This document shows positions 4,261 through 14,777 of a stretch of 64,000 nucleotides of DNA, one piece after another. A program made the translations under genes and the position numbers. The notes under the pieces are model-generated. The model saw nothing but the letters and a program-made list of their open reading frames with translations. It was not told where the DNA came from and searched no databases. The stretch covers positions 480,001 through 544,000 of the forward strand of contig CAWCNY010000001.1 of the NCBI GenBank assembly GCA_963797095.1. Direction: 5' to 3'. Each line of letters opens with the position of its first letter. Within the stretch, counting starts at the first letter, position 1. The DNA is from an uncultured Chloroflexia bacterium. GTDB taxonomy: Bacteria > Chloroflexota > Chloroflexia > QHBQ01 > JADMIH01.

Positions 4261-4542
4261 CTTATCACAAGGTTCTCTTTCTGGTTAGTCCCCGGTTGTT
4301 TCCTAGCTCTCTCGTAAAATAGGCGGCGGGTGTAGTCCATCCGCATCACTGTAGCGACGTAGAGGATAGGACGAAACGCTGCGAGCACTCCCCCCAGGCG
4401 ATTAGTGCTTCCCTGTCCCCCACGATGACCTTCTCCGCGCTGCCTTCGAAGCCAATGGCGATATGTCCTTAAGACGGTGGGCGATGCTTTCTGTACTGCT
4501 TTTCCCACAGCCCCTCAACTCGACTGATCTGAAAATCGTGGC

Positions 4543-6023
4543 TCAAGCTGCCTCAACCACGGGGGCCAGTGTCACCTGGAAGCCGAGTTTTTCAATCTGC
4601 TTCGCCAACCTTCTTGCGGTGGCCTCTGGTCTGCGCTTCTCGAAGTAATCAGCTCCCAACTCTCGATAGGGCTCCTTACGAAGGATAACATGGTAAGCTA
4701 TCACCAAAATCGAATGAGCTACCGCCACCAAAGCCCGCTTGTCCCCACGTCTGGTGACCAACCGCCGGTACTGGGCCGCCAGGTACGTCCCTCTGGTGCG
4801 TACCGCCGCCCGTGCTGCTTGCACAAGTCCCACCCGAAGCCACGCGTCTCCTTTGCGCGTCTTGCCCGACCGCCTCTTACCCGCACTCTCGTTGTTCCCA
4901 GGTGCCACTCCCGCCCAGGCTGCCAGGTGTCCGGCCGTCGGGAAACGGGTCATGTCCGTCCCGATCTCGGCCACCAACATCTCAGCCACCAACATCTCAG
5001 CCACCAACATCTCAGCCACCAACATCTCAGCCACCAACATCTCAGCCACCAACATCTCAGCCACCAACATCTCAGCCACCAACATCTCAGCCACCAACAT
5101 CTCAGCCACCAACATCTCAGCCACCAACATCTCAGCCACCAACATCTCAGCCACCAACATCTCAGCCACCAACATCTCAGCCACCAACATCTCAGCCAAC
5201 TCCCGCCCTACACCCGGGATTGTATCAAGCAAGCTGATCACCTCTTCGTTCCCATCAGCCTGACACGCTGCGCGGATCTCGTCATCAAAGTGGTCAATCG
5301 TTTCGTCCAGAGAGTCGATCTGGCACAACAACTCGGTCAACAGGAAGCGGTGATGAGGTCGCACTCTGCTTCTCAAGGCCCCTTCCAATTCGGAGCGTTT
5401 GCTGCGCAGCCTCCCCACCGCCAAACTGGCAAGCACTTTGGCATCGGTTTCGCCACTGATGATGGCCGTAAGGATCGCCCGCCCCGACACACCCATCACA
5501 TTGGTAGCTACATCGCCCAGCTTGAGGTTAGCTCCCTCACGTCCTTCGTCCTCAGCACTTTCTGCACACGGTTCACCAACGTAGCTCGCTGGCGCACGAA
5601 GTTGGTGCGCTCACGGGTCAAGTCTCGCAAGTCACGCTGAGATTGTGGTGGGATGAAGGAGGGCTGCACTAAACCATGACGCAGCAAATCAGCCAACCAC
5701 TCGGCGTCTTTGACATCTATCTTGCGGCCAGGCAGCTTCTTTACGTGCTGGGCATTGAGTACCCAGACAGTGAAATTGCCTTCCAACAGGTTGAAGATGG
5801 GTTTCCAATAGACCCCGGTGCTTTCGAGGGCTACATGTGTCACTCCCCCCTCGCTCAACCAGTCACTGAGATGCAGCAATTCGGGGATGGTGGTGCCAAA
5901 GGAGCGGGTCTGGGTCTCGCTGTGAGGCGACACAGTGGACCCTGCAAGCATTCGACACGCTACCACACTTTGTTTATGCACGTCCAATCCAGCGCAGCGC
6001 TCAAACATTACGTTCATCGCCAA
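4543..6023 (-). pseudogene. IS110 DEDD recombinase, frameshifted and repeat-expanded
   Basis: GLDVHK and ALESTGVYW (RuvC-like DEDD) plus PGNNESAGK (catalytic Ser). A ~14-nt insertion near 5540-5554 breaks VL|EGANLKLG. Confidence 0.9.
4964..5197. repeat. 15-bp tandem repeat x15 (EMLVA) inside the IS110 recombinase
   Basis: ATCTCAGCCACCAAC, 15 full copies plus a partial, in frame. Confidence 0.95.
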
Positions 6024-6085
6024 TACCTCCTGAGTTCATTGAGCTCAACAAGGGCGAGTTGTCGAGGCTGGATATCGGCGGGGAG

Positions 6086-6257
6086 GAGGATACCCGATGG
6101 ATCAGAAACTGATCTACGCGCTTCCAGCTTCCATTGCACAGAGTGGGCCGTGGAAAACGGAGCAGCAAATGGTGGTGCTTGCGGGTATCCGGGTCAGTCT
6201 TTGTATCAGGCTCATAGCACCAAGTCGAGGCGACCGCATGGTTCGCCGAATCCATCC
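6086..6257 (-). ncRNA. Predicted IS110 bridge RNA (about 170 nt)
   Basis: -10-like TATGCT (6269-6264). 5' hairpin ATGGATTCGGCGAACCAT. Target loop 6235-6191 carries CTCGACT and TACAAAG, matching the insertion site. Second loop closed by GGATACCCG/CGGGTATCC contains AGATCAG, matching the element end. Confidence 0.8.
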
Positions 6258-6851
6258 ATTGCTAGCATACATCTATACACCCATTTTCATCCGGGGTGGT
6301 GACCGTGACCCGGGGGTCATGGCGTCTTTGTACACTTTCAGTATTGCGGCCAAACACGAACTTCGATATCTTCATTCGCACGCGCGAGAGTTTTCAACAT
6401 CCCCCCTTCGCGTGATGCGTGAAAAAGCCTCGAACGAGTACTCGAGTACTGGTGCCCGCACGAACCATGCCCCTCAGTAAGCTGCAAAAGTGTACAAAGT
6501 CGAGCTCAGGCTCTGCAAGCTGCCTTCAATGCCCGGTACTCGCCCCATTCAGAGCAGTGGCCTTCGGAAACCGGGCATATGAAGGTGCGCATGGCGCTAT
6601 TTGTACGGGCAGCCACGAAGCGAAGAGGGGATTACTTCAGCCAACCTGTCAATCGCTTGGCTGGCCTCCTTTCTGCCGGGCGCGGCGGGCAGGGGCTCTT
6701 GTTCTTGTCCGATCCCGCATATCAATAGCCTCCCGTTGCAGCCTACTCCATGGACAGGCAGAGAAAAGGAGATGGCTGCTATTGAGATTCTGCTGTTTGG
6801 GGCATGGGGCAGCCGAGGCGATGTAATTGCCGGCAATGGAGGGTCGTCCAT

Positions 6852-9179: not shown

Positions 9180-9308
9180 AAGCTCGGTTGCGCTCGCACG
9201 CTGGGTGGTAATATGCAGAAGAAGTTTGAGAAAGCAAGGACAGACGGGAGCGTCATGAGCATGGAGGAGGCTGTTGCCTACTCGTTGGAGGACACAAGCG
9301 GTGAGTGA
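9180..9308 (+). pseudogene. C-terminal remnant of a paralogous STAND-TPR gene
   Basis: FEKARTDGSVMSMEEAVAYSLE resembles the tail YEKAWQEGQAMSMEQTIEYALR of the downstream gene. Confidence 0.65.
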
Positions 9309-12300
9309 GCGTCCCACTGGCACCGTCACATTCCTGTTCACTGATATCGAGGGCTCAACCAAGCGCTGGGAAGTTCACCCTGATGCAATGCGCTCCGCCC
9401 TCGCTCGCCATAATGCCATCCTTCGGGGTGCCATAGAGGCATACGGTGGCTACATCTTCAAGACTGTGGGTGACGCTTACTGTGCCGCGTTCTCTTCTCC
9501 GCACAATGCCTTGAGCGCTGCACTCTCCACCCAACACGCTCTGCAAGAGGAAACCTGGCCGGAGGAGACAGGCTCAATCGCCGTCAGGATGGCTCTGCAC
9601 ACGGGTGCTGTGGAAGAGCAGGAGGGAGATTACTTCGGCCAGCCTCTCAACCGTGTTGCTCGCCTCGTCTCCGCAGGGTATGGAGGGCAGGTGCTCCTCA
9701 CCCGCGCAAGCGCGGAGCTTGTGAGGGACAGCCTTCCCGGGGTCAATCTCCTCGACATGGGAGAGCATCGGCTCAAGGATCTAATCAGTCCCGAGCACAT
9801 CTTCCAGGCGGTGGAGAGTGGCTTACCTTCACACTTCCCACCCCTCAAGACGCTGGATAACCGGCCCAATAACCTCCATCTACAGATCACCCCCCTCATT
9901 GGCAGGGAGAGAGAGCTCACCCAGTTGAAGGAGGTGCTGAGTTATGAGGATGTCAGGCTCGTGACCTTGACCGGGCCGGGTGGCATGGGTAAGACCCGCC
10001 TCGCTTTGCAGGTAGCCTCCGATCTGCTGGACGAATTCCCTGATGGAGTGTGGTTGGTGGAGCTTGCTGCCCTGACGGAGCCTAAGCTGGTGGTGACTAC
10101 CGTCGCTGCGGTGCTAGGTGTGAAGGAAGTGGGCAGTATCCCAATCATTGACACGCTCAAGGAGTACCTCAGAGACAAGAACCTGTTGTTGGTGCTGGAT
10201 AACTTCGAGCAGGTGGTGGAAGCAGGCAGGGAGGTGAGCTTGTTGATAGCGGCCTGCCCCAACCTCAAGGTGCTGACTACTAGCCGCATACCCCTCCATA
10301 TAAGGGGAGAAAAGGAGTATTCGGTGCCATCTCTTTCCACTCCAGATATAGGTTATCTGCGCCCTCTTCCGCCCCTGGAAAGCCTCACTCAGTATGAAGC
10401 AGTGCGGCTATTCATCGAGCGGGCCACAGATGTCAAGCCCGATTTCCTGTTGACCAACAACAATGCCCAAGCAGTGGTGGAGATATGCGCCCGCTTGGAC
10501 GGGCTGCCATTAGCCATAGAGCTGGCAGCAGCTCGCACGAAGCTCTTCCCGCCGCAGGCCCTCCTCTCCAGGCTATCCTCCACCTTATCAGGTCGCCTCA
10601 ATCTGCTGACCGGAGGAGCCAGAGACCTACCCGCCCGCCATCAAACCTTGCGCCGCACGATAGAGTGGAGTTACGACCTCCTCTCAGAGGGAGAGAAGCA
10701 GCTCTTTTGGAGAATGGCTCCCTTCAGCGGGGGGCGCACTTTGGAAGCGTTGGAAGAGGTATGCAATTACGACAGGAAGCTGCAGATGGACTTATTCGAT
10801 GGTGCCCAATCTCTCATAGACAATAGCCTGCTGCTGCAGAGGGAAGGGCAAGACGGAGAGCCAAGGTTTTGGATGCTGGAGACGATACACGAGTACGCAA
10901 TGGAGAAGCTAGAGGAGAGTGGGGAAGGAGAGGCACTGCACAAGGAGCACGCCCTCTATATGATGAGACTGGCGGAGGAGGCTGAGCATCATCTTGTGGG
11001 AGCTAAGCAGCAAGAATGGTTGGACCACCTGGAGGCAGAGCACGACAACATCAGGGCTGCTCTGCGCTGGACAATGGAGAGCAAGGAGGGACGGCACAAG
11101 GAAGCACAGCCCGGAGAAGATGAAGACGACGAGGCTGCACCCATCCATATCGGCCTAAGAATAGGTGGAGCGGTTGGGCGCTTCTGGTCTGTACGTGGTC
11201 ACTTCAGCGAGGGGCGAGCGCAGTTGAATGAATTGTTGGAGATGGAGAAAGTGCGGGGCGCACAAGCAGCAAAAGCCAACATGGTAGAATCAAGCGCGAA
11301 TGAACGGCAGACACGGGAAGCATACACAAAACGCAAGGCAATCAGTGCCAAGGTTCTCGATTGGGCAGGCATGCTAGCTTCGCAGCAAGGGGAACCGGCT
11401 CGCGCACGCTCCCTCTTTGAGGAGAGCCTGGCTATCGGACGGGAGTTGGGAGACAAGCGGGGCATTGCCTCATCGCTCCACAATCTGGGGAATTTGGTGT
11501 GGGATCAGGGGGACTACGCTTTGGCTCGCTCCATATCTGAGGAGAGCCTGGCTATCGGACGGGAATTGGGAGACAAGCGGGGCATTGCCTCATCGCTCCA
11601 CAATCTGGGGAATGTGGTCGCCGATCAGGGGGACTACGCTTCAGCCCGTGCGCTGTTTGAGGAGAGCCTGGCTATTCGGCGGGAACTGGGAGACAAGCGG
11701 GGCATTGCTATTTCACTCAACAATCTGGGAGCTGTGGCCTTGGATCAGCAAGATTACACGTCCGCGTGCTCCCTCTTTGAGGAGAGCCTGGCTATTCGGC
11801 GGGAACTGGGAGACAAGCGGGGCATCGGCTTATTGCTCAGCAATTTGGGAGCTGTGGCCTTGGCTCAGGGGGACTACGCTTCGGCTCGTGCGCTGTTTGA
11901 GGAGAGTTCTGACTATTCGGCGGGAACTGGGAGATAAATCGGGGATCGCCAATTCACTATCTGATCTGGGAGATGTGGCCTTGGCTCAGGGGGACTACGC
12001 TTCGGCTCGTTCGCATTACGAGGAATGCCTGGTTACGATGCGGGAACTGGGAAATAGGCTGGGCATCGCCGTATCGCTGGCCGGGCTTGGTGGTCTGGAG
12101 GTATCTATCGCGGGCAGTGCAAGCGGAGTGAGAGTGGCAACTGCACAAAGCAATGCAACATCTGAGACAAAAGTAGCGGACAAGCTAAAGAGGGGTGCCA
12201 AGCTGTTCGGGTCTGTGGATATACTGTTGGAGAGTACCCACATGGTGCTACCTTCAGATGACCGCCTGCCGTACGAGCACGGAATAGCCATCGCTCGGGA

Positions 12301-12590: not shown

Positions 12591-14777
12591 TTACGCTCGA
12601 TACGTCTAGCATTTAGGGAATATGGGATTGCCCAACGGGCCGAGAGGCCCAGGGTAACGGAGCCTCCGTAGTACTCAGAGGACGGGAAAGCCGTCCACAT
12701 TGACCAGGGTACGTCCACGTGAAACCACGTGAGGATTTCATGTTGAACGTAACCAGGCGGGGAAGGGAGGCAGGTGCTTTGAAACCCAGCAAGAGAGGTA
12801 CTCGAGATGAGAAACGCCGAAACTGTACTGGGGATAATCCAGGATCGCGGCAGGAGAGGACTGCTGCTAGAAGATGTCTATCGACAACTGTTCAACCCGC
12901 AACTGTACCTGCTCGCCTATGGCAAGATTTACCGAAACAAAGGAGCGACGACACCGGGAACGACACCGGAAACTGTGGATGGAATGTCCATGATGAAAAT
13001 CGATGCCATCATCGAAGCCTTACGCTTCGAGAGATACAGATGAACACCGGTGAGGCGTATCTACATCGAGAAAAAGCACTCCAAAGGGAAGCCCCAGAGG
13101 AAGTCTCAAGGAAAAGCAATCTCGAAAAAGAAGCGCCCCCTCGGAATACCCGCATGGTCAGACAAACTGTTGGCGGAGGTAATACGCCTCATCCTTGAAG
13201 CATACTACGAACCGCAATTCAGCCCATCTTCCCACGGTTTTCGCCCTGACCGAGGTTGCCACACAGCGCTACGGGAAATCTACCATAAATGGGTGGGCAC
13301 AAAGTGGTTCGTGGAGGGCGACATTTCCGACTGTTTTGGCTCGCTGGATCACACCATCATGATGTCAATACTCAGGGAAAAGCTCCACGATAACCGCTTT
13401 CTGCGCTTGATTGAAGGTTTGCTCAAGGCCGGATATTTGGAAGGGTGGAGATACAACGCCACGCTCAGTGGTAGTGCACAAGGCTCGGTACTTAGCCCCA
13501 TCCTCGCCAATATCTACCTTGCCAAACTGGATAAGTATGTCGAGACGACGCTCTTGTCAACCTACAACCAAGGGAACCGACGCAAGATCAACCCGGAGTA
13601 TCTCCGGCTACGCGCCAGTGTCACGAGGCTAAAACGGATGGGGAAAAAAGAGCAAGCACACAAGTTGCGTCGTCAGATGCAGCAGCTACCCTCCCTTGAC
13701 CCCAACGACCCAGCCTACAGACGGTTGCGCTACATACGGTATGCAGACGATGTGCTTGTGGGTTTCAGCGGCCCACGTAAGGAAGCTGAAGAAATCAAGC
13801 AACTCCTCAAAGAGTTTTTGGGTGATGAACTCAAGCTGACCCTCTCAGAGGAGAAAACGTTGATCACCCATGCACGGAGCAAAGCTGCACGCTTTCTGGG
13901 TTATGAGGTCGTAGTGCTCAACAACGACCACAAACTGGACCGGCGTGGACATCGGAGCATCAACGGCCAGATCGGGCTGAAAGTACCCTCGGACGTAGTA
14001 CGTGCGAAATCTACTGGCTACCTGCACAACGGCAAACCGATACACCGAACGGAACTTATCCACGACAGCGTGTACAGCATCATGGCACAGTACCAGGCGG
14101 AGTACCGGGGCATTGTGGAGTACTATCGGCTGGCTTACAACCTGCACCAACTCAACCGGCTGAGGTGGGTGATGGAACGGTCGCTAACTCAAACACTGGC
14201 ACACAAGCTACGCATCAGCGTGAGCAAAATCTACCACCGTTACCAAACCAACATTCAGACAGAAGCGGGTCCACGTGTTGGCCTGCAAGTGGCGGTTGAG
14301 CGCGGAGAGGGAAAGAAGCCACTGATAGCGAAGTGGGGCGGTATTACTCTCGCACGGAATATGAAAGCAGTCCTCAACGACCAACCTACACGTGTTTGGG
14401 GATCACACTCACACACAGAGCTAGAAAAACGGTTCCTGGCAGACACTTGTGAGCTATGCGGCTCACGTGAAGATGTCGAGGTACACCATATTCGAGCACT
14501 AAAAGACCTCAAACGAAAGGGACGTGCTGATAGACCTGAATGGGTGAAAGTGATGGCGGCACGCCAACGCAAGACGCTGGTGGTCTGCCGAGCATGTCAC
14601 GATGAAATCCACAGAGGGAAACTAACACAGCATACACTACCACGAGTACAACACGAAGCCGCTAATGGAAATGGAGAAGCACTGGAGAGCCGGGTACTCC
14701 GAAAGGCGTAAGCCCGGTTTGGGGAGGGGCGGACAGAAAAGTATCGGTAACGACAACTCGCTGGCCGCCTACTCTAC
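12591..14777 (+). mobile_element. Group II intron (inner), 5'-truncated
   Basis: DIII-like GAGGACGGGAAAGCCGTCCAC...GGGGAAGGG, DV GAGCCGGGTACTCCGAAAGGCGTAAGCCCGGTTT (about 14687-14720), DVI ending CTACTCTAC. No GTGCG 5' end found. Confidence 0.88.
12807..14711 (+). pseudogene. LtrA-like RT/maturase/HNH protein with in-frame stop
   Basis: RPLGIP, SHGFRP, EGDISDCF, RYADD, HNH CELC...HH...CRACH. TGA at 13041-13043 replaces a likely Trp; PQG reads AQG. Confidence 0.9.

Follow-up and report, generated by a model that had tools for sequence, protein, structure and literature searches.

The stretch of DNA analysed here (64,000 nt from an uncultured Chloroflexia bacterium; hereafter the window) carries, on the minus strand at positions 4524-6327, what is very probably a dead RNA-guided insertion sequence of the IS110 family, with a bridge RNA located upstream of the recombinase gene and on the same strand. 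The kind of element is already known, and it is the order of the guides that is unusual for an RNA at this position within the element. In gene sense the predicted guide order is the reverse of that of IS621, and the RNA has the upstream position known from IS110-type elements, a combination that is newly described here. Bridge recombinases are under development as programmable tools for DNA insertion, excision and inversion, and their design rules have been drawn from very few elements, namely IS621, IS622, ISEc21 and ISPpu10. The large natural clade to which the window element belongs (about 100 loci) has readable guides and applies IS621-like RNA logic in the opposite polarity, and so widens this rule book. 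Its members are found in Chloroflexota, cyanobacteria, Acidobacteriota, Bacillota and others. The covariation tests described below used about 100 related loci (100-121 depending on the test), with permuted pairs as controls; the counts take in up to four loci (L006, L013, L018 and L023) of an unpublished genome, G022, and no claim depends on these alone.

The element is 1,804 bp long when the core dinucleotide is counted at both ends, as defined by alignment with a second copy in the same genome (G000:C5:324926-326564; 99.9% identity over 1,199 nt and 99.8% over 510 nt). This C5 copy aligns with the window element end to end, and the sequences part ways outside: the C5 flanks are different once TGTACAA-AG has been passed at one end and AG-TCGAG at the other. 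Since the two copies have different outer flanks, the boundaries are exact to within the shared dinucleotide. On the plus strand the junctions read CTCGA-CT (4519-4525) and CT-TTGTA (6326-6332), the core being CT on this strand and AG in gene sense. Terminal inverted repeats are absent, and insertion is site-specific with a short shared core, as is typical of the IS110 family. The Pfam domains, the second copy and the flanks all bear out the initial annotation, which had recognized an IS110-family element with a dinucleotide core. Across 100 clade loci the gene-sense terminal dinucleotides are AG (77), AA (16), AC (4) and AT (3); on the other strand these read NT, the pattern with a flexible first base that was tested for IS621 according to the text of PMC11208160.

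It had also been proposed that excision at the shared CT core rebuilds the target, and the rebuilt word is a real one: in the 6.0-Mb genome there are 11 occurrences of the 12-mer CTCGACTTTGTA, where 0.72 would be expected, and one of them is 160 bp from the element (6493-6504). From its uninterrupted copies the target can be recognized as an IS701-family terminal inverted repeat. A third, independent insertion was found on a DNA contig of a soil run, in a variant of about 97% identity whose left end runs into another IS701-like terminal repeat (the loose end of this contig, X3, falls at 6334). The two genomic copies and this metagenomic variant occupy the identical position within one target word and share the dinucleotide. 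In the window, the first 7 bases of the interrupted IS701-type repeat (CTCGA-CT, 4519-4525, plus strand) are followed beyond the element by its continuation at 6326-6338, and an intact repeat lies at 6487-6504. These two inverted repeats bound a relic of about 184 bp, the rest of which spans 6326-6504 on the plus strand and includes inverted repeat I1 and the 12-mer. No further copy of the relic interior was found in this genome, and the term MITE was rejected as an overstatement for a single-copy sequence. The identity of the target as an IS701-family terminal repeat had been missed by the initial annotation.

The recombinase gene is broken into two fragments on the minus strand. The N-terminal fragment (5508-6023, likely start ATG at 6017) contains the DEDD RuvC-like domain (PF01548 on 6023-5508, E 2.1e-28, 99.5 bits against a cut-off of 29), is 86% identical to residues 1-161 of the intact relative P0001 and retains the D, E, D and D columns that are invariant in 30 relatives. 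The C-terminal fragment (4543-5499) contains the Transposase_20 domain (PF02371, E 2.1e-21, 76.5 bits against a cut-off of 21.3) with the NESAGK motif, whose serine is assigned as catalytic in the literature consulted, and aligns to residues 169-416 of P0001 except for a 70-residue insert. The catalytic motifs are preserved in both fragments. Against the NCBIfam model NF033542 ('IS110 family RNA-guided transposase', cut-off 140) the two fragments score 125.6 and 122.4 bits, each under the cut-off because the gene is split; its intact relatives P0001 and P0034 reach 289.6 and 286.5. The best solved relative in the PDB is the IS621 transposase (E 3.1e-10). Comparison with relatives confirmed both lesions that had been named as the cause of the breakage. 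A 14-nt frameshifting insertion made of two 7-nt units (5539-5552, minus strand) is missing from 5/5 aligned relatives and identical in the C5 copy, and a 15-nt tandem array encoding repeated EMLVA (4964-5198, minus strand) has 15.7 units here, 4.7 in the C5 copy and one in intact relatives. The recombinase gene is thus predicted to be dead in both copies, and the window copy to be immobile by itself. The frameshift common to both copies would mean either movement after breakage, by help in trans or bypass, or spread of the lesion between copies. In practical terms little follows for this genome: the window copy is a pseudogene and should be annotated so.

[quoted passage not shown] The left (upstream) end, about 303 nt at 6024-6325 of the minus strand, holds the bridge RNA and is conserved in sequence and structure in relatives. 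The predicted RNA body (6075-6249, minus strand) is bounded by the two arms of the outer helix, TCGGCG (6249-6244) and CGCCGA (6080-6075), and is arranged as outer helix, target-binding loop and donor-binding domain, in this order. The target-binding loop (6192-6235, minus strand) is closed by GGTC (6235-6232) and GACC (6195-6192) and contains an inner hairpin at 6221-6209. The donor-binding domain (6088-6190, minus strand) is formed by a 9-bp stem of GGATACCCG (6190-6182) with CGGGTATCC (6096-6088) and an inner helix (6167-6160 with 6124-6117). Every motif lies on the minus strand where it had been placed before (CTCGACT, TACAAAG, GGTC/GACC, the 9-bp stem and AGATCAG). Four helices are backed by covariation, with 17 helix pairs showing double changes in the clade alignment and 85.1% of cells paired overall, compared with 78.3% in shuffles and 29-53% when slid. 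An outer helix of at least 8 bp is formed at 67/115 loci (122/1,150 permuted pairs), and a donor-domain stem of at least 8 bp at 91/115 (134/1,150 permuted). The closing stem of the target loop shows compensatory changes at all 4 pairs, with 96.6% of cells paired, and the donor inner helix is 98.6% paired with double changes in 3 pairs. RNA folding, which the initial annotation had put forward as a check, gave a divided outcome: the stems are supported by clade comparison, but the single-sequence fold is not significant (z = -1.45; 20/200 shuffles fold equally well) and does not draw the first stem, GGTC/GACC of the target loop. The predicted stems of the bridge RNA are therefore based on comparison of relatives, not on single-sequence folding. 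An Rfam scan of 4300-6700 with E up to 10 returned three chance-level matches, all far below the gathering score and none relevant.

Within the target-binding loop, the 3' target guide TACAA-AG-AC (6197-6205, minus strand; TACAAAG at 6205-6199) has the same sense as five bases of the left flank, the two core bases and element bases 1-2. The match is 9 nt long, TACAAAGAC (6205-6197), and includes the first two bases of the element, the so-called handshake. At least 7 nt of this guide are found in the left flank at 97/114 loci, compared with 69/1,140 permuted pairs, and its mutual information is 0.83-1.62 with flank positions -1 to -5 and 0.99-1.42 with element positions +1 and +2. The 5' target guide CTCGACT(T) (6222-6229, minus strand; CTCGACT at 6229-6223) is complementary to the gene-sense core and right flank AG-TCGAG (4525-4519), and matches the uninterrupted target over 8 nt, CTCGACTT. 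It is imperfect against the right flank in more than half of the loci. Exact 7-nt matching over the whole downstream region gave a weak signal (16/114 vs 57/1,140), and this test was later replaced by one anchored at the right end, in which the reverse complement of the guide matches core and right flank over at least 5 nt at 41/100 loci (144/3,000 permuted) and over at least 6 nt at 25/100 (20/3,000). Sense-strand pairing of either guide with the right flank gave no signal (6/100 vs 106/3,000 and 9/100 vs 118/3,000). In the mutual information analysis, flank -1 to -5, element +1 and +2, right end -1 to -5 and the second core base all fell on the expected RNA columns. The two target guides covary with the two flanks on opposite strands and overlap at the core, so that the guide-flank covariation whose absence was to have spoken against the initial annotation is present for both guides, above permuted pairs. 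The 'symmetric 7+7' target guides described there hold for the window copy but not as a clade rule: the rule appears to be 5 flank, 2 core and 2 element bases on the 3' side, and a weaker one of variable register, about 2 + 4-6, on the 5' side. A chance origin of these predicted guide matches is excluded by the clade-wide tests with permuted controls.

In the donor-binding domain, the 3' donor guide AGATC-AG (6109-6115, minus strand) has the same sense as the element's final 5 bases plus core (4530-4524). The exact 7-mer is found downstream of the stop codon at 104/121 loci (22/1,210 permuted). AGATCAG also takes part in a local hairpin, as one of its arms (6114-6109 with 6105-6100); such a self-hairpin (GATCAG/CTGATC) was rejected as a family feature, being present here yet only in a subset of loci (32/115 vs 173/1,150). 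The 5' strand of the donor loop, GCACCACCATT (6168-6178, minus strand), has the same sense as the subterminal segment 6302-6295 and covaries partially with element positions +16 to +28. No covariation was found with +3 to +6, so that this strand is not a canonical left-donor guide, and none was found by contiguous match, by mutual information on anchored segments or in the whole RNA alignment. Signals for reading of the left end are limited to the 2-base handshake and the subterminal same-sense match. The earlier reading of the donor-binding domain thus stands in part: AGATCAG covaries with the right end, but only this 3' guide behaves as expected. The broader claim of an upstream bridge RNA with target-binding and donor-binding loops is upheld by guides and helices that covary across the clade. 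In the relatives' alignment, the left subterminal features (6283-6319, minus strand) are the hairpin TGACCCCCGGGTCA (6319-6306), TCACCACC (6302-6295) and TGAAAAT (6289-6283), and the 17-nt right end (4526-4542, minus strand) has a conserved ATTTTCA (4536-4530) and a variable GATC before the core. TGAAAAT and ATTTTCA form a 7-bp subterminal inverted repeat conserved in the clade, with its left copy about 35 nt inside; the permutation test is uninformative for this motif because it is invariant.

For the copy and its clade, then, the element, its boundaries, its target, the RNA helices and the covariation of guides with flanks and ends are established. By analogy with IS621, ISEc21 and ISPpu10 we infer that the RNA would be produced, bound by the recombinase and used to direct recombination. 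The 5' guide CUCGACU would pair with one strand of the target half CTCGA-CT, and the 3' guide UACAA-AG with the other strand of the half CT-TTGTA; the next two bases of the 3' guide (AC) would pair with the first bases of the element itself after strand exchange. The 3' guide of the donor domain, AGAUC-AG, would read the right end of the element and the core at the circle junction. The element would then come to lie inside the IS701-family terminal inverted repeat through recombination at the shared dinucleotide.

It may be asked whether the matching words are instead features of the DNA, either sites bound by a protein or remnants of duplicated ends, with the conserved fold serving as a leader that controls translation of the recombinase. 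The outer helix stops a few bases before the ribosome-binding region, and no transcript of the RNA region was seen in RNA libraries, where no contig covers it; the sole match is an identical 203-nt contig from a soil metatranscriptome (5759-5960), inside the recombinase gene, which may be DNA carry-over, and assembled metatranscriptome contigs show neither strand nor RNA ends. A strict scan of the linear element gave no sigma-70-like promoter, and by eye no -10 element lies at the right spacing after the conserved right-end motif. However, the words differ from relative to relative in step with the flanks, compensatory changes preserve the helices around them, and duplication cannot keep a flank matched because the flank sequence lies outside the element. 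Homologous RNAs have moreover been shown, in the sources consulted for IS621, ISEc21 and ISPpu10, to guide recombination, and the DNA-level explanation is very improbable. That the element is still active, with the 14-nt insertion bypassed or the protein supplied in trans, has more in its favour, since the insertion is common to both copies despite their different sites, the catalytic motifs are intact in both fragments and the genome has other IS110-family genes with open frames. But the identity of these other genes is only 55-58%, their guide RNAs are different, and 14 extra EMLVA units lie inside the protein, so that present activity is quite unlikely.

The remaining alternatives concern the class of the element. 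IS621, for which the bridge recombinase and bridge RNA are described in Durrant 2024 (PMC11208160), Hiraizumi 2024 and PMC13626964 as far as consulted, shares with the clade a DEDD and Tnp recombinase, an RNA upstream of the gene and on the same strand, a target loop before the donor loop, the core at the 3' end of each guide, an NT core, the handshake of two bases that follow the core in the 3' target guide, the lack of terminal inverted repeats, a dinucleotide core at both ends and the motif 'guide-TGG-hairpin-CC-TG-guide-AG'. On the strength of the loop layout, the core position and this motif, one might take the window element for an ordinary IS621-type element with its 5' guide directed to the left flank and its 3' guide to the right flank, in gene sense and with a CT core. 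This is extremely improbable. The gene-sense flanks are TACAA-AG and AG-TCGAG, and pairing in the IS621-type geometry is no better in the clade than in permuted pairs (6/114 vs 55/1,140; 7/114 vs 34/1,140; 4/100 vs 84/3,000). An identical reading of IS621 in E. coli W gives a 5' guide with the sense of the left junction and a 3' guide that is antisense to the right one; this gene-sense arrangement (5' guide in left-flank sense, 3' guide antisense to the right flank, CT core) was tried for the clade, and the reverse was found. The CT-frame reading of the initial annotation is thus half right: the IS621 rule is obeyed on the plus strand, but RNA and recombinase lie on the minus strand, where the core is AG and the order reversed. 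Further differences from IS621 are a protein just 26-31% identical over two stretches in the window element, a strongly covarying donor guide on the 3' rather than the 5' side, a left-donor guide that is not found in canonical form, and, in the linear element of the window copy, no promoter found.

Seen from the RNA, all IS621 rules hold but the genes are on the opposite strand, and therefore the gene-sense guide order equals that of IS1111-type seekRNAs. In these, the complement of the top strand lies 5' of the complement of the bottom strand (Siddiquee et al., PMC11187229), and the clade matches this order, the rule being taken from the text of that paper alone. On real data the IS1111 order was sought in three K. 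pneumoniae plasmid copies, which have more than 2 kb of common context and unreadable boundaries. It is possible to see the window element as an IS1111-group member whose guide RNA has moved upstream; it also has the 7-bp subterminal inverted repeat TGAAAAT/ATTTTCA, such repeats being 7-17 bp in IS1111 elements and present in ISEc11, ISKpn4 and ISPa11 (as described in the text of PMC11187229). Against this, those elements have shorter proteins and carry their non-coding region and guide RNA downstream of the gene, whereas here the RNA lies in a long upstream region and the right end amounts to 17 nt; the protein, at about 416 residues, is longer than the roughly 340 given for IS1111s in the text of PMC11187229, and the left repeat copy is about 35 nt inside. 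IS1111 membership is thus unlikely. Somewhat less likely than not, the clade is a third architecture of the IS110 superfamily, with IS110-type upstream RNA and IS1111-type strand polarity, and perhaps an unconventional reading of the left donor arm. With this combination the genes would be antisense to the recombination core and adjoin the left donor arm. The arm would have no core-adjacent guide, and the 5' strand of the donor loop may read a segment about 20 nt back, behind the hairpin and beside the 7-bp repeat. Such a reading of the left donor arm would depart from the textbook one, and together with the opposite polarity it bears on the relation of IS110 and IS1111 types. Upstream RNA with reversed polarity was not mentioned in the running text of the literature searched.

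Repeated or mobile DNA is also the target of other RNA-guided elements. The insertion site of ISEc21 is a conserved part of IS3-family transposase genes, that of ISPpu10 lies in REP sequences, and both elements take their guide RNA from the upstream non-coding region (PMC11187229; bioRxiv 10.64898/2026.03.19.712850, as far as consulted). The strict RTG and tolerant LTG of ISPpu10 resemble the strong 3' and weak 5' guides of the clade. According to the same sources, ISEc21 and ISPpu10 differ in having the IS621 order, to which that of the clade is opposite, with a CT core, a -35 element in the right end and a -10 element in the left end. The window insertion is a clean natural case of one insertion sequence RNA-aimed at the terminal repeat of another. 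Partridge and Hall are said to have reported in 2003 that IS4321 and IS5075, of the IS1111 group, use the terminal inverted repeats of a different transposon family as insertion sites; those elements belong to another subgroup, and their target is reportedly Tn21-family rather than IS701-family repeats. Insertion into an IS701-family terminal repeat would disable the host element, and both genomic copies lie within the outermost 14 bases of such a repeat.

The IS110-family element occupies 1,804 bp on the minus strand, from window position 6327 down to 4524, and its recombinase gene is split into two frames. The first half (6023-5508, minus strand) encodes the DEDD RuvC-like domain (PF01548, E 2.1e-28), and the second half (5499-4543, minus strand) encodes PF02371 (E 2.1e-21). 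Relatives of this recombinase exceed the NF033542 cut-off, and its best solved relative is the IS621 transposase (E 3.1e-10); the element is a member of the IS110 family. Among intact relatives, the metagenome-derived P0001 (416 aa) is the closest; it shares 86% identity across residues 1-161 and aligns with the second frame from residue 169 to its end. The initial annotation described the protein as broken with identifiable lesions, and two lesions indeed set the window copy apart from an intact gene. One is a frame-shifting 14-nt insertion (5552-5539, minus strand), missing in 5/5 aligned relatives. The other is an in-frame 15-nt tandem array (4964-5198, minus strand) that repeats EMLVA in 15.7 units with 99% identity. 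Apart from these, the catalytic-motif columns are preserved.

At C5:324926-326564, the source genome (6.0 Mb in 8 contigs) has a second copy. Over its whole length, this copy differs from that in the window only by a few substitutions and a shorter array, and it shares the 14-nt insertion. The array differs in length between copies of the same genome (15.7 units in the window, 4.7 on C5), intact relatives having a single unit; it may be a minisatellite that changes fast, or the difference may stem from assembly. Read in gene sense, each copy has TGTACAA-AG as its left flank and AG-TCGAG as its right flank; farther out, the flanks of the two copies diverge. Therefore, the element sits between two copies of one dinucleotide, the core. 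It had been proposed that excision rebuilds the target, and removal of the element does leave CTCGA-CT-TTGTACA on the plus strand.

The 303 nt from the left boundary to the start codon are conserved among relatives. In all, 175 full-length recombinase matches came from two collection scans and from searching related genomes, and 149 of them have at least 300 nt upstream; 121 of these 149 contain the motif marking the inner hairpin of the first loop. The consensus RNA starts with an outer helix and a 4-bp stem (GGTC/GACC in the window copy). The first loop then consists of about nine variable nucleotides, a hairpin GGTGC...GAGCC, YG, six variable nucleotides, AG, three nucleotides and the closure of the stem, and is followed by a 9-bp stem around a second domain, which contains an inner helix and a variable hairpin. 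Applied to 51 sequences, RNAalifold predicted the first stem together with the hairpin and the inner helix, and 9/16 pairs show compensatory changes. In the structure that we specified ourselves, the share of paired cells is 85.1%, compared with 78.3% in shuffles (0/500 reach 85.1%) and 29-53% when the partners are slid, and 17 pairs show changes on both sides. Because the 51-sequence alignment blurs the 9-bp stem (61.7% paired), this stem was tested without alignment: at least 8 bp form in 91/115 loci, compared with 134/1,150 cross-locus pairs. The outer helix forms in 67/115 loci vs 122/1,150 cross-locus pairs. Folding of the window RNA as a single sequence gave no significance, and no Rfam family matches it.

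Three guides had been read in this RNA, and their positions hold in the window sequence. On the minus strand, the first loop carries the 5′ target guide CTCGACT(T) at 6229-6222 and the 3′ target guide TACAAAGAC, which contains TACAAAG, at 6205-6197; the second domain carries the donor guide AGATCAG at 6115-6109. Covariation of the two target guides with their flanks had been suggested as a check among homologous loci; across relatives, all three guides covary with flanks or ends. For the 3′ target guide, the upstream flank contains a same-sense exact match of at least 7 nt in 97 of 114 distinct loci, against 69/1,140 when guides are dealt to other loci. The 7-mer at the AGATCAG position has an exact match downstream of the stop codon in 104/121 loci (22/1,210 permuted) and marks the right end, whose conserved form is ATTTTCA, five variable bases and the core. 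With the right end so placed, the 5′ target guide, taken as its reverse complement, matches the core plus right flank over at least 5 nt in 41/100 loci (144/3,000 permuted) and over at least 6 nt in 25/100 (20/3,000 permuted). In every test that sequence permits, the RNA behaves as a bridge RNA would.

Mutual information (MI) over 68 distinct loci was used to map DNA positions onto RNA columns. Left-flank positions -1 to -5 map to the five pre-core bases of the 3′ target guide (MI 0.83-1.62), and element positions +1 and +2 map to its two post-core bases (MI 0.99-1.42); this match after the core is the clade's handshake, which is likewise present in IS621. The second core base maps to both 3′ guides. 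Right-end positions -1 to -5 map to the donor guide, a circular result since that guide had placed the right end, so that the unbiased support is the 104/121 vs 22/1,210 count. The 5′ target guide shows a weak anti-diagonal only (MI 0.27-0.37), and its register varies by one or two bases among loci. This weak and shifting signal arises in part because natural targets are degenerate repeats. For example, five copies of one clade member in genome G026 (L005, L012, L016, L020, L025) all lie in one repeat, whose site reads ...CCCTTGTCATCCTG-AG-CCGCAGGCGAAGGATCTCC..., and the 5′ guide fits its right half only with a 4-7-nt offset.

The polarity of these guides was compared with that of IS621. According to the rule published for IS621, the left end is joined to the left target, and the core at either boundary is CT (PMC11208160; PMC13626964). 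As a control, E. coli W (NC_017635.1) has four copies, three of them identical and the fourth nearly so, with the left junction ...ATCAGGC-CT-TGTAT... and the right junction ...ACAGTAT-CT-ACG.... In the left end of these copies, the 5′ target guide has left-junction sense, the 3′ target guide is reverse-complementary to the right junction, two element bases included, and the 5′ donor guide has right-end sense. In the clade, the roughly 100 related loci, each of these three guide relations falls on the opposite side of its loop, and the IS621 arrangement gave no signal (6/114 vs 55/1,140; 7/114 vs 34/1,140; 4/100 vs 84/3,000). Seen from the RNA, nothing differs from IS621: every guide has the core at its end, in the 3′ target guide the core is followed by the handshake, and on the strand that the RNA treats as top, the core is NT (CT 77, TT 16, GT 4, AT 3 of 100 clade loci). 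Unlike in IS621, however, the RNA and recombinase genes of the clade are on the other strand relative to the core. Thus, the clade departs from the IS621-type layout in one defining feature, guide order in gene sense. According to Siddiquee et al. (PMC11187229), the complement of the top strand precedes that of the bottom strand in IS1111-type seekRNAs, and the order is reversed in ISEc21, of the IS110 type. By this description, the clade has the IS1111 guide order together with an upstream non-coding region as in the IS110 type. This combination is not mentioned in the texts searched; published figures or supplements may already show elements with an upstream RNA and reversed order.

The IS621 rule also expects the 5′ strand of the donor loop to match the left end beside the core, and no such match was found: element positions +3 to +6 have no covarying RNA column, and contiguous matches are not above chance. 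This strand (consensus GGCACC plus five bases) instead partially covaries, in the same sense, with left-end positions +16 to +28, matching over at least 8 nt in 13/68 loci vs 23/680 permuted. Over the five bases after CACC, identity declines (0.77 to 0.42), as does MI (0.78 to 0.24). The segment lies after a short covarying hairpin (6319-6306) and before TGAAAAT (6289-6283), the inverted copy of the right-end ATTTTCA (4536-4530). This 7-bp inverted repeat and the hairpin are subterminal features throughout the clade (window 6283-6319 and 4530-4536).

The target itself belongs to another mobile element. CTCGACTTTGTA occurs 11 times in the genome vs 0.72 expected by chance, and 8/11 sites are both ends of four near-identical 1,477-bp elements (L197; C2:258010-259486, C8:55499-56975, C6:88172-89648, C6:831727-833202). 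Their sole gene encodes an IS701-family transposase of 475 aa (NF049999 333.8 bits, cut-off 170; PF13546), their terminal repeat starts CTCGACTTTGTACA, and they are flanked by 5-bp duplicates such as CTTAG. At each of the eight ends, the target site of the IS110 element is uninterrupted. The C5 copy lies within a diverged IS701 copy that has an internal deletion (C5:326560-327538), seven bases from its end. The window copy has the same position in a relic of about 184 bp with two inverted IS701-type terminal repeats of 16-18 nt (4519-4525 continued at 6326-6338, and 6487-6504), the interior of which is single copy in the genome. A DNA contig from a soil run holds an approximately 97% variant of the left end, continuing into another IS701-like terminal repeat. 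So all three insertions lie at the same position in the same type of target, which is the tip of a different insertion sequence.

As for expression, a strict scan found no sigma-70-like promoter in the linear element. By eye, ATGAAAAT is followed in relatives by words resembling TGCTATAAA, and these would be compatible with an extended -10 within the left end. One soil metatranscriptome run (X9) gave a 203-nt contig identical to window 5759-5960, within the broken recombinase gene, and no coverage of the RNA region; its contigs are uninformative on strand or ends, and this one may derive from DNA carry-over. Since both copies share the frameshift, either the last move came after the lesion, by help in trans or bypass, or the lesion spread between copies.

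Nearby genes encode a Crp-type regulator, a GAF protein, a subtilase and an adenylate cyclase-NB-ARC-TPR protein, an ordinary context for a soil bacterium, and no resistance genes were found near the element. The plus strand of the window encodes an 887-aa protein (9274-11937) that combines TPR repeats with an adenylate/guanylate cyclase domain and an NB-ARC/AAA ATPase domain, and a group II intron-type reverse transcriptase with maturase and HNH domains (13050-14711; PF00078, PF01348, PF21368). Elsewhere, K. pneumoniae plasmid NZ_CP062998.1 (L199-L203) has three identical IS110-family copies with a 341-aa product. The identical context that they share exceeds 2 kb and lies next to IS5-family genes; each of the three may sit in a copy of one mobile element. 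On one contig of another genome (G035:C409:907-6434; L002/L009/L022), three different elements of the clade are arranged head to tail, the right flank of the first continuing directly into the left end of the next.
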